Part shown: in pieces, positions 60 through 50,868 of the stretch
Numbering within the stretch: the stretch's first letter is position 1
How the letters are laid out: each line of letters starts with the position of its first letter
From: Candidatus Aenigmatarchaeota archaeon
GTDB lineage: Archaea > Aenigmatarchaeota > Aenigmatarchaeia > GW2011-AR5 > JAGGXF01
NCBI GenBank assembly: GCA_021157845.1
Contig: JAGGVU010000013.1
Location: 11,192-75,191 of the forward strand
Direction of reading: 5' to 3'
DNA length: 64,000 nucleotides
Made by a program: the position numbers and the translations under genes
Notes under the pieces: model-generated
Database searches by the model: none
What the model was told of the DNA's origin: nothing
Seen by the model: only the letters and a program-made list of their open reading frames with translations

Positions 60-243
60 TGCGGTGACCGGGAATTTCACTACCATTTCTCTTTTACATT
101 CAAGCTTTTCTCTTTTTAAGAGAAAAGGTTGATTTGAACCCGAGTCTTAACCTTGGCAAGGTTATGTCCTAACCAAATTTTCCAGTCTTTTCCGCAAGCG
201 CTTTTGCGACGAAGTCGGAAAAGGGCTTCTAGACTATCACCGC
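60..243 (-). tRNA. tRNA-Gly(GCC) with two predicted introns (D-loop, T-loop)
   Basis: Reverse complement reads GCGGTGA-TA-GTCTAGA[~50 nt insert]TTGGTTAGGAC-A-TAACC-TTGCCAA-GGTTA-..-TCGGG-TTCAAAT[~58 nt insert]CCCGG-TCACCGC-A. Acceptor, anticodon and T stems pair. The anticodon loop is uninterrupted. Confidence 0.75.
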
Positions 244-5293: not shown

Positions 5294-5499
5294 CGCTGGG
5301 AGAGGGATTCGAACCCCCACGTGCATCCATATCAATCAGATAAATCTGATAAATACAATGGCACACTAGCTACCAAGTTTTCTCTGCAACCAGCGTAAAA
5401 CTGGTTCAGTGACTCATCATGTCCGCCGAGTCAGAGTCAAGCCATGTCTTCATCGAAAACCTCAAGGCTAGCGCGTTAACCTGGTTCCGCAATCCCAGC
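5294..5499 (-). tRNA. tRNA-Ser(UGA), type II, with a long anticodon-loop intron and a probable second insert in the variable arm
   Basis: Reverse complement: GCTGGGA-TT-GCGGAACCAGGTTAACGC-G-CTAGC-CTTGAG[~110 nt]A-GCTAG-TGTGC[~36 nt]GCACG-T-GGGGG-TTCGAAT-CCCTC-TCCCAGC-G. Confidence 0.7.
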
Positions 5500-5533
5500 A
5501 CTATAATTATCAGAGCAGGTAAAAATATAAAAA

Positions 5534-5706
5534 CGCCGAGGGCAGGATTTTCACAAATCTTTCTTCGGTTTCAAGTTTCTTTGGGATCGAAGACCGACGT
5601 GCAAAGCACGTCAAGTTGTTTTCGAAATGGATTTGGTTCGAACCTGCACGTCCAGAGGACACACGGTCTCGAGCCGTGCGCGTTAACCTGGTTCCGCCAC
5701 CTCGGC
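5534..5706 (-). tRNA. tRNA-Ser(CGA), type II, with an intron in the T-loop
   Basis: Reverse complement: GCCGAGG-TG-GCGGAACCAGGTTAACGC-G-CACGG-CTCGAGA-CCGTG-TGTCCTCTGGACGT-GCAGG-TTCGAA[~88 nt]T-CCTGC-CCTCGGC-G. Confidence 0.75.
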
Positions 5707-5776
5707 ACTGTTATTTGTATACGCAATAAATATACTTAAAATCATACTTAAAAATATTCCCGATGATTATAAATCT

Positions 5777-5977
5777 ATGAAATTAGCAGTTAAATACGAC
5801 AAAAAAATGAAAATTATTGAACTCGAAGATGGGACAAAAGTCTTAGATTTGCTTAAGAAACTTAAAATAAATTTAGAAGAGGTCATATGCAAAAGAAATA
5901 ACAAAATTGTTACAGAATTTGAAATGCTGAAGAATAAAGATAATATCGAAATAATAAATATAACAACAGGCGGTTAG
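5777..5977 (+). CDS. ThiS/MoaD/TtuB-type ubiquitin-fold sulfur carrier (C-terminal GG)
   Basis: 66 aa ending in ..ITTGG immediately before the stop. Sits two genes upstream of a TtuA/NcsA-type PP-loop ATPase. Confidence 0.65.
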   Translation: MKLAVKYDKKMKIIELEDGTKVLDLLKKLKINLEEVICKRNNKIVTEFEMLKNKDNIEIINITTGG

Positions 5978-16109: not shown

Positions 16110-16288
16110 AGCGAGGTGGGAGAGTTGAACTCCCTTCTCCCGGTTTCTGCTTCTTTTGACTGAATTTCTTCGGTTTTGGATCCAACCTTTTTTAAAGGTT
16201 GTTTTTGACTGAACTTCTTCGGTTTTGGATCCAACCTTTTTTAAAGGTTGGCCTGCAGCCGGGTGCATAACCGTTCTGCCAACCTCGC
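16110..16288 (-). tRNA. tRNA-Cys(GCA) with a ~108-nt anticodon-loop intron
   Basis: Reverse complement: GCGAGGT-TG-GCAGAACGGTTATGC-A-CCCGG-CTGCAG[intron]A-CCGGG-AGAA-GGGAG-TTCAACT-CTCCC-ACCTCGC-T. Confidence 0.75.
16153..16250 (-). repeat. 49-nt tandem direct duplication (47/49 identical) inside the tRNA-Cys intron
   Basis: Unit 16153-16201 and unit 16202-16250 differ at two positions. Each unit contains the hairpin CAACCTTT-AAA-AAAGGTTG. Confidence 0.9.
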
Positions 16289-24668: not shown

Positions 24669-27600
24669 CTATTTCTTTTTGAATATTTTATCAAGTTTTT
24701 TGTGCAAGTCTTTTATGTTAGCTGATTGTCTGACTGGTCTATATTTGTAAGAGCCTTGCCTATAAGATGGCTGTGAAAATTTTCCACTTTGAACTACATA
24801 CCAGCCTGCCACTGCTAATATTATAATTACTAAAATAATTGCGATTGTTGACCAGCTTACACCACCGGTCTTTGGTTTCAGCGAAGATATTTCTGCTTCA
24901 AGCGTTTTTGCACTAGCTTCTCCGCTATCAAGCAATTGTGACGCCGTGAAATAGTTGTTTTCATCTATGTTGGTTTTTATCTCCGACAGCTTTGTTTTCA
25001 AAGCTACTAATAAAGTCTCAACCCTTGTTGTGTTTTTGTTTTGCCTCTGAGCAGCTGTTATTAGCTGTTCTAACTCAGAAACTTTTTTTGTCAGGTTAGT
25101 GTATCTCTCTTTTATAACTGCCTGCGTAGCTTCATTTGGCGTGACGCGCAATTTATATGTCTTGGTAGCTTCTTTTGTCAGACTTGCTGCTTTTGCTGTA
25201 AATTCGTAGTCCTTCACAGTTGCGTTGAAAGGTATAGAAAAATTAATTGTAAACGTTGCTGTACTGCCAACGGCAAGCTCTTCAACTTCTTCTGGTGTAA
25301 TTTTATACCAGTCACCAATTCCGCTAAGTGTTAAAGAAACGTGCTCTAATATTTGATTATAATTATTTTTCACTTTTATTTCTATTACTTTTGAATCTCC
25401 CTGAATTATTTCTGTTGTACCCAATGTGGTTAATATTGAAATTGGTGTTTCTGATTCGCCGGCTACTGCAAAATATGAAAACCCTGAAACAGTTGCCTCA
25501 TAATATACATAGCTGGTTGACTCAGTCGTCTTTGTCGTGGGTTGTTCAATCCACTCGTCATTAACATACTTTTTCAGCACAATTGTATCTTTATCTATGC
25601 TATGGCTACTAATCCAAGATTTTGGCACCTTAAACTTTATAATAGCAGAATCGATATCAGAATTAGAAAAGCCGCTTTTGGTTATCTTAATATATTTGTA
25701 AACAGAGCCTTTGTCAGATGAGATTGCTGCCGATGCTCCTGATGGCTTAGATGATTTTTCTATTGTTAATGAACCTGATATTGTATTTTTTGCTTTAATT
25801 ACTACTTTTTCCACTGCAATGTCAGCCCATTTTGAAAACGGATATGTTCTTGACTGGCCTTTTGATACAGAAATAGTTTCTGTCTCTGAGATTGTTGTGT
25901 CTGTGTCACTCCCACTTTGACTACTACTAGACTTGCATGCTCCATTTGAACATCCATATGTACAATAAACTTTTGTCCAATCTCCATCATCACACATAGC
26001 TCTGTTAGATGAATCATAACATTCGTCCGAATATTCACCGTCACCGTACCTTGTACCATCATGATAACAATCTCCTGATGCTGCACACCATTTTCCACTT
26101 CCGTCATAGTCAGATACACAACGGTTAGATGCACAATCGTCATTGCTGTCACAAACTTCTCCATTTGCAAGTGCTGTCCCGTTTACAACTGGATTTATAC
26201 CTGAGAAATGTGGTATTTTCATCCATATCATATGCTTTGTTGTATCAACATAACATAGTGCTGAACTCATGGTTGAGTCTGATTTACTACATGCCATACC
26301 ATCATTTACATATGAAGCATAATCACCTGTTGCATAGTCTGCATACTCGGTGCCTGTTAAATTATCTGTTGAGTTAACACCCCGCTCCCATATTACATTC
26401 CAATCTTCATCATAAAATTTGTCTATTGTAACTGTGAAATCCCAGTCATCATTATATGCACTAGAATTATATGGTATCCCTAATAATACATCGTCATATA
26501 TTTCAGGTCCCATACTTCCAAATCTCCAAGCCTCTGCCATTGCTGACTGCCCCTGAGTGGTGTTGGAAGAATCGTCAAACATTGCATCTGGAGGACCAGA
26601 AGCAAGCATATCAACATTATTGAACTGGACTGTTATATTGTTGCTCGCTTTTCTCATTCTGAAGTTTATCTTTCCGCCGCCCATTATTACTGACATCGGG
26701 TTGAAATCATCTCCAAATGTTTTTTCACTTCCACCTAACATACAGTCATCAGACGGGTAAGGAACATTGCAATCATCAGAATATTTATACATACCTATTT
26801 CTATGTCATCAAAACCACTCTCAATTGCAAATATATTTATTGTGTTATCTGACGAAGTATACGCAAAACAATCATCATCGCTAGTGTCATTTGTTGGTGC
26901 TTTATATTGCAAACCAGTTGGAACTTTTGAGACTTCATTTTCAGCCATAAATTTGAGTTTATAACCATCTTTTGTCATAACCATATATTCTTTTAATTTT
27001 CCTCCAGAATCATTTACACCCATCCATAAAAACATTGGTTCGCGCTCTTCTTTTATTATTTGCATATATCCTAGTGATAAATTATTTCCATCTATATCCG
27101 CAGTATTTCTGTGTAAAAGAGAAAAGTCTGTTATATTCAAAACATCAACAACATTTGTTAATGTTCCTGATACATCAGCGACGGCACTAACAAAAGACAG
27201 ATTTTGGTAAACCTCAATGTCTGTTACAGCCGTATAATTCAAATCAGAAATATCATAGCCATTATTAGTATCATTTAGATATGTTGTATTCATGTATATT
27301 TCTGTTACGTTATCTTTGTAGAACGCAGAAACATTTGTCACATCAGTCCAATCTGATAAATCAACTGTACTATTATAATTAAAAGTTCCACTATCTGAAG
27401 CCAAATTATTACCAGTATACAAAACCAATTTATCAGTTCCATTTAGATAAAACCAATATGTTCCATTATATTCAAGACCTCTTGTATGATTAGTAATATT
27501 ATAATTTTCTTCTTCAACGATTTCGTCTTCTATTTTTCCAGGTTTGAAACTGTTTAGAGTAATTATAACAGGATCGCTCTGAAGCTCTGCTACACTTAAA

Positions 27601-30640: not shown

Positions 30641-30898
30641 CGCCCCTGACGGGAATTTCAGAGCCTTTTCAGATTTTTTCATTGAAGCTTTTTTCTAAAA
30701 AGGCTCATTTGAACCCGCGACTTCTTGCTTTATCCGACAAAAGTTCTGATCATCCTTTACTAAAAGTAAAGTCACTTCACCTCCTTGTCTTCATCTTAGG
30801 AGGCAAGCACTCTATCCAAATTCCTCCACCATTTTATTTTTCCGCCAGCGCTTTTTCACTGGTTTCACAAATAAAAGGGCTGTCTGAGTTACAGGGGC
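30641..30898 (-). tRNA. tRNA-Arg(CCU) with three predicted introns (D-loop, anticodon loop, T-loop)
   Basis: Reverse complement: GCCCCTG-TA-ACTCAGA[~63 nt]TTGGATAGAGT-G-CTTGC-CTCCTAA[~66 nt]GCAAG-AAGTC-GCGGG-TTCAAAT[~52 nt]CCCGT-CAGGGGC-G. Confidence 0.7.
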
Positions 30899-47449: not shown

Positions 47450-47619
47450 TGCGCCTGGGCAGAATCGAACTGCCGATCTCCGCCATTCTTAGAATCATGT
47501 TTACACCAAAGCTTTTTCCTAAAAAGGCTCATGTGAGGGCGGTGTCATACCATTTTCCCCATCTTGCTCTTACACTAATCCTTTTCTAACGCTTTTTAAA
47601 AGGGTTAGACCACAGGCGC
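47450..47619 (-). tRNA. tRNA-Val(CAC) with two predicted introns (D-loop, anticodon loop)
   Basis: Reverse complement: GCGCCTG-TG-GTCTAA[~52 nt]TGGTATGAC-A-CCGCC-CTCACA[~46 nt]T-GGCGG-AGATC-GGCAG-TTCGATT-CTGCC-CAGGCGC-A. Confidence 0.7.
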
Positions 47620-50694: not shown

Positions 50695-50868
50695 TGGGCC
50701 CGGCGAGATTTGAACTCACGCTCTCCAGTTAGCTCAGCCATTTCAGGCAGGTCAAATTTGTGCCTGAAAGTCGTATAAGACTGGCGCTTTAATTGCCCAA
50801 ACTTTTCTTTTCCATTGAAGCTTTTCTTTTTGAAAAAGAAAAGGTTCACCAGGCTAAGCTACGGGCCC
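50695..50868 (-). tRNA. tRNA-Ile(UAU) with two predicted introns (D-loop, anticodon loop)
   Basis: Reverse complement: GGGCCCG-TA-GCTTAGCCTGG[~57 nt]TAAAGC-G-CCAGT-CTTATA[~43 nt]A-ACTGG-AGAGC-GTGAG-TTCAAAT-CTCGC-CGGGCCC-A. Confidence 0.65.

Follow-up and report, generated by a model that had tools for sequence, protein, structure and literature searches.

Introns that interrupt archaeal tRNA genes and are removed at a bulge-helix-bulge (BHB) motif have a canonical form, reportedly set out by Thompson and Daniels in 1988 and by Marck and Grosjean in 2003. Among described systems the closest to the one treated here is that of the order Thermoproteales, for which three papers, in the passages that take up the subject, speak of "large-scale tRNA intron transposition" and credit it to Fujishima 2010 (PMC4090602, PMC4033280, PMC10714607). 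Positions 20/21, 37/38 and 59/60 stand on a published list of intron sites (PMC4090602), the leaders of split tRNA genes have been linked to introns of relatives (PMC10714607), and increased disruption of tRNA genes is known for DPANN lineages (PMC5829648). Here we study a 64,000-nucleotide stretch of archaeal DNA, called the window throughout, in which four tRNA genes (Gly, Arg, Val and Ile) carry homologous introns, which we call family A, in three different loops. We read them, with a probability of roughly 0.75, as one family of short (46-59 nt) BHB introns that spread by copy-and-paste while the copies exchange patches of sequence. Our literature search found no account of a family of intron sequences, either from Aenigmatarchaeota or from elsewhere among the DPANN archaea. 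We regard the result as a known phenomenon in a new lineage; its less certain and more novel part is a module that the introns share with free-standing copies in DPANN genomes.

The host lineage is Aenigmatarchaeota-like DPANN and not Thermoproteales, judging by the composition of the window (33% GC) and by its thermosome, which is at most 72% identical to species-representative genomes and finds its top matches in metagenome-assembled genomes (MAGs) labelled Aenigmatarchaeota (DPANN). The difference from Thermoproteales is thus one of taxonomy, not of mechanism. The proteins of the window are archaeal and include the thermosome, fibrillarin, Nop5, ribosomal protein S17e and several aminoacyl-tRNA synthetases. 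Of the contigs drawn from three Joint Genome Institute (JGI) metagenomes, L001 and L356 either match the window at 100% identity or encode a protein identical to one of its own, and L233, L275 and L293 are 98.5-99% identical to it (98.5% for L233, which is of the same species). JGI samples with this species are 3300017593, 3300016457 and Ga0164318.

Homologous introns in three loops of four tRNA genes

Seven tRNA genes, all on the minus strand, are present in the window and have 13 introns between them; they were found by reading the sequence, by a de novo search for BHB motifs and by applying ARAGORN to the spliced forms. Standard tools miss almost all of these genes, since two or three introns interrupt nearly every one: default ARAGORN finds 0 of the 7 and Rfam at its gathering threshold 1 of the 7. 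There are two introns in Gly(GCC), one in Ser(CGA), two in Ser(UGA), one in Cys(GCA), three in Arg(CCU), two in Val(CAC) and two in Ile(UAU). With the introns removed, ARAGORN returns standard cloverleaves for Gly(gcc), Arg(cct), Val(cac) and Ile(tat), as well as for Cys and Ser(tga). The four genes that concern us most, each followed by its family A intron, are:

60..243, minus strand: tRNA-Gly(GCC) gene, two introns; the spliced form folds as tRNA-Gly(gcc), 74 nt
74..132, minus strand: Gly T-loop intron (Gly_T), 59 nt, position 59/60; core 132..91
30641..30898, minus strand: tRNA-Arg(CCU) gene, three introns; the spliced form folds as tRNA-Arg(cct), 76 nt
30655..30707, minus strand: Arg T-loop intron (Arg_T), 53 nt, position 59/60; core 30707..30674
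47450..47619, minus strand: tRNA-Val(CAC) gene, two introns; the spliced form folds as tRNA-Val(cac)
47486..47531, minus strand: Val anticodon-loop intron (Val_AC), 46 nt, position 37/38; core 47531..47498
50695..50868, minus strand: tRNA-Ile(UAU) gene, two introns; Rfam tRNA match of 45.7 bits, spliced form tRNA-Ile(tat)
50793..50848, minus strand: Ile D-loop intron (Ile_D), 56 nt, after G19, position 19/20; core 50848..50807

An earlier note on this DNA had described four inserts of one family lying in a T-loop, a D-loop and an anticodon loop. They are real introns whose BHB-defined ends agree with that description to within 1 nt, and with exon boundaries set by the BHB motifs the three loops become positions 59/60, 19/20 and 37/38. 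Gly_T reads cgggTTCA[AA/T]...TGAA[AT/T]cccgg (bulges in brackets, predicted cuts as slashes within them), with an outer helix h=5, an inner helix h'=1 and a score of 51.3 bits under a covariance model of the family core (R1); L356 carries an identical allele of this tRNA gene. Arg_T has a strict BHB with h=5 and h'=13, scores 52.2 bits and folds with z=-5.3, and the 5' half of its tRNA begins at 30898. Val_AC (44.7 bits) has a relaxed BHB, by hand check, with a central helix CUCA/UAAG paired at 3 of 4 positions, h=5 and h'=3; the L233 allele has a better h' (GAGCC/GGUUC). A strict Val motif (ACAC/GTGT) was rejected, since it would cut within the anticodon stem and leave a product that is not tRNA-like. 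Ile_D reads cttaGCCT[GG/T]...GGGC[AA/T]taaag, with h=3, h'=4 and 55.3 bits. Splicing after U20, with the 3' exon ATTAAAGC, would yield a 12-nt D-loop, and 19/20 is preferred.

The identity of the Ile gene is set by its other intron, at 37/38, whose canonical BHB is CTTA[TA/C]...TGAG[CT/A] with h=5: the pairing CUUA/UGAG fixes the anticodon as UAU, and readings of the gene as Arg(UCU) or Ser were dropped. In archaea a UAU anticodon is unusual, the normal reader of AUA being a modified CAU tRNA. A tRNA-Ile with this anticodon has reportedly been seen in Nanoarchaeum and Korarchaeum, and the tRNA-Ile orthologs in L002, L004, L007, L038 and L061 also have it.

The homology of the four introns rests on several counts. 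The window has four matches to the motif CCTTTT-N(4-30)-AAAAGCTT, all of them in the four introns, against an expectation of 0.18, and 0 of 100 shuffles reach that number. In pairwise Smith-Waterman local alignments, each compared with 300 dinucleotide shuffles, z is 10.4 for Gly_T with Ile_D and 8.6 for Arg_T with Val_AC (0 of 300 shuffles reach the score in either case) and 4.6 for Arg_T with Ile_D (1 of 300); the two T-loop introns, Gly_T and Arg_T, are weakly alike (z=2.2). The closest pairs therefore join different loops. The 5' limit of homology coincides exactly with the 5' splice site (T[G/C]A[A/G]CCTTTT); from there the likeness spans about 46 nt through AAAAGCTT-N-RRTG-N-AAA, and for Arg_T and Val_AC it takes in the intron 3' end as well. 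The covariance-model search that the earlier note had proposed returned, when run on the window with R1, only the four copies (E 2e-11 to 2e-8).

The inserts are of low complexity (T-runs and A-runs) in a genome of 33% GC, and to this extent a likeness of AT-rich, hairpin-forming inserts through chance or composition might be suspected. The dinucleotide shuffle controls refute this explanation, to which we give practically no weight. It is also at odds with the 17 invariant columns across 11 family sequences, with a 13-nt segment, AAAAGCTTCAATG, that the copies have in common though the BHB does not need it, and with the distribution of an exact 24-nt variant, CCTTTT-N(3-25)-AAAAGCTTTRATGGAAAA, which matches 13 times in a 596-Gb genome collection, 11 of them in DPANN MAGs. 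Two outcomes had been named in advance as fatal to the family, similarity at the level of shuffled sequence and a single common position upon re-annotation. Neither occurred, and revised exon boundaries cannot bring the four inserts to one position.

One splice geometry and a conserved core

How can the same intron sit in a D-loop, an anticodon loop and a T-loop? In every strict case the outer helix is the tRNA stem, the next 4 nt pair with the 4 intron nt that precede the last two intron bases, and the predicted splice sites lie after the second base of each 3-nt bulge. The intron site is six nt past the outer helix, which gives 59/60 (53+6), 37/38 (31+6) and the D-loop (13+6), where it falls at 19/20 in the window Ile gene (one extra pair lengthens the helix) and at 20/21 in L332. 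Because the six-nt offset is common to all, the three cloverleaf positions amount to one geometry for the endonuclease. The positions are equivalent for that enzyme (outer helix, 4-bp helix, 2 nt), so the occupation of different loops is less exotic than it sounds.

From this geometry we propose the following route. The pre-tRNA would fold so that the D-, anticodon- or T-stem serves as outer helix; the first four loop nt would pair with a 4-nt segment near the intron 3' end, two 3-nt bulges would present the splice sites, and the intron 5' arm (RARCCUUUU...) would form the inner helix with a distal A-rich arm. Going by what is established for BHB introns, the tRNA splicing endonuclease and a ligase would then excise the intron. 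Any hairpin loop closed by a stem could host this geometry, so that the same element would fit D-, anticodon- and T-loops, and only the 4-nt guide would have to match the local loop. The intron strand of this helix reads TGAA in the T-loops, TAAG in Val, GGGC in the Ile D-loop, GCAG in Arg(GCG) of L232 and CGCT in the Asn D-loop of L332. The family would spread among tRNA genes by copy-and-paste, and its copies would keep swapping patches of sequence by ectopic recombination.

The intron 5' arm has two alternative partners, the distal A-rich arm and a proximal copy of that arm. The first pairing creates the inner helix of a competent BHB (13 bp in Arg_T), and the second a local hairpin. In 11 hand-picked copies 96.6% of the cells of this hairpin are paired and 7 pairs have changed on both sides (0 of 500 shuffles match); in 37 distinct copies, aligned by fitting to the R1 model, which favours the structure, the values are 98.6% and 45 double-change cells (again 0 of 500). 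The conserved core consists of the covarying hairpin and a RAUGGAAAA tail. It lacks a C/D box arrangement (C RUGAUGA, D CUGA), no Rfam family matches it, and at the intron sites there is no Rfam match even at E<=10. Readings of the core as a kink-turn (K-turn), C/D box or H/ACA element were rejected for want of a fit in sequence and of any Rfam match.

Copies in other genomes extend this picture. Those below are among the matches listed in two loose pattern scans (script-filtered) and two tighter scans; L125, L254, L091, L188 and L323 were judged chance matches of the loose scans, whose matches are mostly chance bacterial ones.

L303/L307: tRNA-Asp(GUC), 59/60; 57/59 identical to window Gly_T; relaxed BHB only
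L204: tRNA-Glu(UUC), 59/60; 49/53 identical to Arg_T; strict BHB
L338: tRNA-His(GUG), 59/60; 50/53 identical to Arg_T; strict BHB
L221: tRNA-Glu(CUC), anticodon loop and 59/60; two copies in one gene; strict BHB at 59/60
L232: tRNA-Arg(GCG), 37/38; strict BHB; GC-rich contig (0.58-0.59)
L248: tRNA-Arg(CCU), 37/38; GC-rich contig (0.58-0.59)
L351: tRNA-His(GUG), 37/38; MAG labelled Iainarchaeum, GC 0.63
L332: tRNA-Asn(GUU), 20/21; strict BHB
L324: tRNA-Ser(UGA), class II, 59/60; Aenigmatarchaeota MAG CS3-C152; strict BHB
L326: second class II tRNA, 59/60; Aenigmatarchaeota MAG CS3-C152

Significantly similar introns are found, then, in Gly, Ile, Arg and Val in the window and in Asp, Glu (two genes), His, Ser, Asn and Arg(GCG) elsewhere, and across the family the occupied positions are 19/20, 20/21, 37/38 and 59/60. 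A strict BHB puts the 5' splice site exactly 1 nt ahead of the core in 9 of 16 intron copies, and the core is conserved over MAGs whose GC runs from 0.27 to 0.63. Carriage by viruses was considered and dropped: four pattern matches fall on viral contigs, none above 34 bits.

Proposed spread, exchange between copies and free-standing cores

Comparison of nearly identical genomes reveals a further detail. Over about 220 nt the tRNA-Ile locus of L233 is identical to that of the window bar one single-nucleotide polymorphism. The exception is the middle ~35 nt of the D-loop intron, in which two indels, of 8 nt and 7 nt, are clustered with several substitutions. In L233, 19 nt of this patch (TTTTTAGGAAAAAGCTTCG) are identical to the Val anticodon intron of L233 itself, and the corresponding patch of the window is like Gly_T. 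Differences between the two genomes are present in the Val intron too, at 5 of 46 positions, again clustered. Since the Ile patch is that of its own genome's Val intron, introns in different genes and positions exchange sequence on a within-species time scale. Part of the similarity within family A is, on this evidence, kept by patch-wise exchange among existing copies, and not solely by new insertions. Together with the near-identity of whole introns in unrelated tRNAs, such exchange supports a family that would be both spreading and homogenised.

Our observations comprise homologous introns, their positions and BHB geometry, copies in unrelated tRNAs that are nearly identical, and the replacement of patches between nearly identical genomes; for these, copy-and-paste spread combined with exchange between copies is the best explanation. 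The earlier suggestion of spread between tRNA genes is supported, with qualifications. Near-identical introns in unrelated tRNAs speak for it, as does their patchy presence among Ile orthologs, where the genes beside the thermosome gene in L002, L004 and L007 lack the D-loop intron and carry other non-canonical introns (the tRNA-Ile of L061 has a simpler hairpin intron at 21/22). It is qualified by the exchange just described and by the Ile copy of the window, which looks old because a distant relative, L038 (thermosome identity 63%), carries a related intron that hand alignment puts at this D-loop site (the automated BHB search did not pick the site); this copy would be inherited rather than recently moved.

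The age of the Ile copy is one of several points that weigh against spread by copy-and-paste. Splicing itself, and the direction and mechanism of spread, are things that we infer. Within the species we find no empty-site allele, as L233, L275 and L356 all carry the introns, and L204 and L303 need not be of the same species as the window. Transfer from one T-loop to another could be ordinary recombination through nearly identical T-arms. The Val copy has a relaxed BHB only, and in Gly h' is 1. The core, moreover, is also found outside introns, so that a shared module function could add to the similarity.

A possible though doubtful alternative is that the introns are old, occupy ancient sites by vertical descent and owe their likeness across positions mainly to concerted evolution through ectopic gene conversion. 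The replacement confined to the core of the Ile intron between 98.5%-identical genomes, with a new patch that is that of the Val intron, is what conversion would leave, and the clustered differences in the Val intron and the L038 intron at the same Ile site point the same way. Conversion nevertheless presupposes that homologous copies are already in place at different sites, and something must first have carried a copy from one position to another. The near-identity of entire introns in unrelated tRNAs (57/59, both ends included) looks like whole-unit copying, and the absence of the intron from the Ile orthologs in L002, L004 and L007 also counts against descent from ancient sites.

The occurrence of the core outside introns opens a different line of explanation. 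The 11 DPANN matches to the exact 24-nt variant come from MAGs labelled Woesearchaeota, Aenigmatarchaeota, Micrarchaeota and Iainarchaeota; L351 lies in a tRNA, L344 in a 16S rRNA insertion, and the remainder outside RNA genes. Copies in L229, L253, L278 and L053 are also outside RNA genes, and one in L242 lies directly 3' of a complete tRNA-Glu. The free-standing copies score 36-51 bits with R1, and 6 of 16 adjoin the stop codon of a long open reading frame (ORF). They are not bracketed by BHB motifs (3 of 17, against 37% at random positions), and we dropped the idea that they are introns for this lack of enrichment. In the orthologous secY-adk spacer of two Aenigmatarchaeota species the element is identical at 30 of 30 consecutive bases while the flanking coding sequence is at about 83%, which makes constraint on the free-standing core apparent. 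The core of Ile_D in the window and an intergenic copy in L342 agree at 37 of 42 aligned positions. Searching the window with R1 gave no free-standing copy.

Could selection for a shared function, and not mobility, account for the family? The core would then be a lineage-wide element that introns captured or arose from, and might act as promoter- or terminator-like punctuation or as a protein- or RNA-binding hairpin. We consider this unlikely, though the spread of free-standing, unbracketed copies over four labelled phyla, the constraint in the secY-adk spacer and the placement beside stop codons and, once, a tRNA 3' end all favour it. So does the resemblance of the string AAAAGC-TTTAAT to the local B recognition element (BRE)/TATA sequence, the window promoters reading AAAGCTTTAAAC and GAAAGCTTTTATAC; as promoters, the copies would place transcription starts about 25 nt downstream of AAAAGCTTTAAT. 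All free copies, moreover, read TTT at a point where TTC or TTG is the usual sequence of intron copies (Fisher p=3e-5), an association with context that is confounded by search patterns and taxonomy. This T/C position covaries with hairpin position 2 (A-U 21, G-C 14, C-G 1), which argues for a structural rather than a TATA constraint, and promoter spacing (TATA ~25-30 nt upstream of the start) fits L342 and L350 only. The window has no free-standing copy, and independent recruitment leaves the identity of whole introns between unrelated tRNAs unexplained. As a promoter for a downstream gene the core was rejected at tRNA-Gly, where the next ORF runs for 18 codons before it stops and a separate promoter serves the real gene, and at tRNA-Arg, which has no co-directional downstream gene. 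One variant would make the introns relics of fused split-tRNA halves, with a terminator and a promoter between trailer and leader; we rejected it because a start ~25 nt past the TATA-like string lies at or beyond the distal arm and leaves no pairing-competent 3' half. A resemblance of the string TTCAATGGAAA to archaeal origin recognition boxes (ORB) was also noted.

Mobility and module need not exclude one another, and a broader proposal joins them, which we put forward tentatively and hold to be less probable than not. The introns may be one guise of a DPANN-wide structured module of ~35-60 nt, made up of a RAACC-UUUU hairpin, AAAAG-C-UUY and RAUGGAAAA, that also stands beside stop codons, at tRNA 3' ends and in a 16S insertion, and is under purifying selection independent of BHB splicing. 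Such a module, be it a miniature mobile element or one that functions as RNA or DNA, would become spliceable by acquiring a 4-nt guide and a distal arm, and the non-canonical tRNA introns of these archaea would be born when it lands in tRNA hairpin loops.

Several sites of the core and its parts have unusual surroundings. In L344 (4162-5446) the 16S rRNA has a 594-nt insertion at model position ~1033, with the core copy near the insertion's 3' end, and the 16S rRNA in L338 (371-2149) has about 300 extra nt. In L226 (113-464) the core module stands between two tRNA genes, after a 14-nt partial duplicate of the downstream tRNA's 5' end, with a partial duplicate of a tRNA 3' end further upstream; from their sequence these duplicates look like footprints of insertion or recombination at tRNA genes. 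One MAG labelled Woesearchaeota has tandem AAAAGC-N6-GGAAAA arrays at L340 640-700, L341 60-160, L343 4052-4130 and 4959-5030, and L345 1000-1115, some of them within apparent (putative) ORFs and translated KPFEKSFDGK near the N-terminus.

If family A did spread by copy-and-paste, tRNA intron "transposition", which has so far rested on the one order Thermoproteales, is now seen in a second, unrelated lineage (DPANN). The question also becomes more tractable, with one geometric site rule, a site-adapted 4-nt guide and population variants with moving patches. The intron load explains why tRNA finders miss these genes (0 or 1 of 7 found) and affects completeness estimates for DPANN MAGs. If the core is truly an independent functional or mobile module, it points to the origin of non-canonical tRNA introns.

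Other introns of the window and comparison with known systems

The remaining introns of the four genes do not belong to family A:

176..226, minus strand: Gly D-loop intron (Gly_D), ~51 nt, approximate ends, D-loop 5' side, family B; the cloverleaf needs its removal
30819..30880, minus strand: Arg D-loop intron (Arg_D), ~62 nt, approximate ends, family B, placed by the cloverleaf and by similarity to Gly_D
47553..47604, minus strand: Val D-loop intron, ~52 nt, approximate ends, family B-like, placed by the spliced cloverleaf
30730..30796, minus strand: Arg canonical 37/38 intron, 67 nt; relaxed BHB, hand-parsed, the cloverleaf requiring its removal
50731..50773, minus strand: Ile canonical 37/38 intron, 43 nt

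Family B (GCCCTTTT...AAAAGCGCT[T/G]GCGGAAAA), which is related to family A, occupies the 5' side of the D-loop in Gly, Arg and Val, with z=6.1 between Gly_D and Arg_D, and intermediates in L211 (T-loop of a tRNA-Gly UCC), L053 and L221 bridge it to family A. The BHB search of the window found no strict motif for the family B introns.

What looks like a third family comprises the Cys(GCA) intron (16145-16252, minus strand), within which a unit of ~53 nt is duplicated in tandem, its relative at 37/38 of the tRNA-Glu(UUC) in L204, and the Ser(CGA) T-loop intron (5548-5636, minus strand), which shares the string AAACCGAAGAA. The anticodon introns of Ser(UGA) (5372-5460, minus strand) and Arg(CCU) (30730-30796) share GATGAAGAC and contain C/D-box-like strings (ATGATGA, CTGA) with non-canonical spacing and no Rfam match to small nucleolar RNAs. 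At 26239-26310 (minus strand) there is a weak Rfam match to SNORD45 (29 bits against a gathering threshold of 42, E=0.16), which lies inside a 1638-aa ORF and is probably due to chance. L356 carries, at 5441-5872, a 143-aa gene of the phage-integrase family near tRNA-Gly, ~1.9 kb past the window start, which may be the remnant of an integrated element.

As to its nearest counterpart, family A is like the transposed introns of Thermoproteales, as the pertinent passages describe them, in that similar BHB introns lie in different isoacceptor genes at canonical as well as non-canonical positions (PMC4090602, PMC4033280, PMC4390854), several to a gene and with rapid positional turnover between relatives. 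It differs in its host, an AT-rich DPANN archaeon closest to Aenigmatarchaeota and not a crenarchaeote, and, so far as those descriptions go, in a covarying hairpin core and invariant tail that also occur outside tRNA genes. A 2015 review states that no translocatable intron is known in class II tRNAs (PMC4390854), with which the class II tRNA-Ser host in L324 contrasts. With canonical BHB introns family A shares the hBHBh' geometry, the 4-bp central helix, the 3-nt bulges and the predicted cut after the second bulge nt, and it departs from them in placing one sequence family at three loops and in the relaxed form of several motifs.

Other known systems resemble family A in single traits. Split tRNAs (Nanoarchaeum equitans; the tri-split tRNAs of Caldivirga) have a trailer and a leader that pair as the 5' arm and the distal 3' arm do here, and Nanoarchaeum equitans is likewise a DPANN host, but the Gly, Arg, Val and Ile genes are contiguous, whereas split genes lie at separate loci. 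The C/D box small RNA in the tRNA-Trp intron of euryarchaea is, like our core, a conserved structured module within an intron that also has a free-standing copy; the core, in contrast, has neither the C/D box arrangement nor an Rfam match. Finally, the core is like miniature inverted-repeat transposable elements (MITEs) and repetitive extragenic palindromic (REP)-like elements in being a short palindromic unit scattered through the intergenic spacers of many genomes, and unlike them in that we identified no target-site duplication or transposase and that its spacer copy is conserved as a functional element would be.

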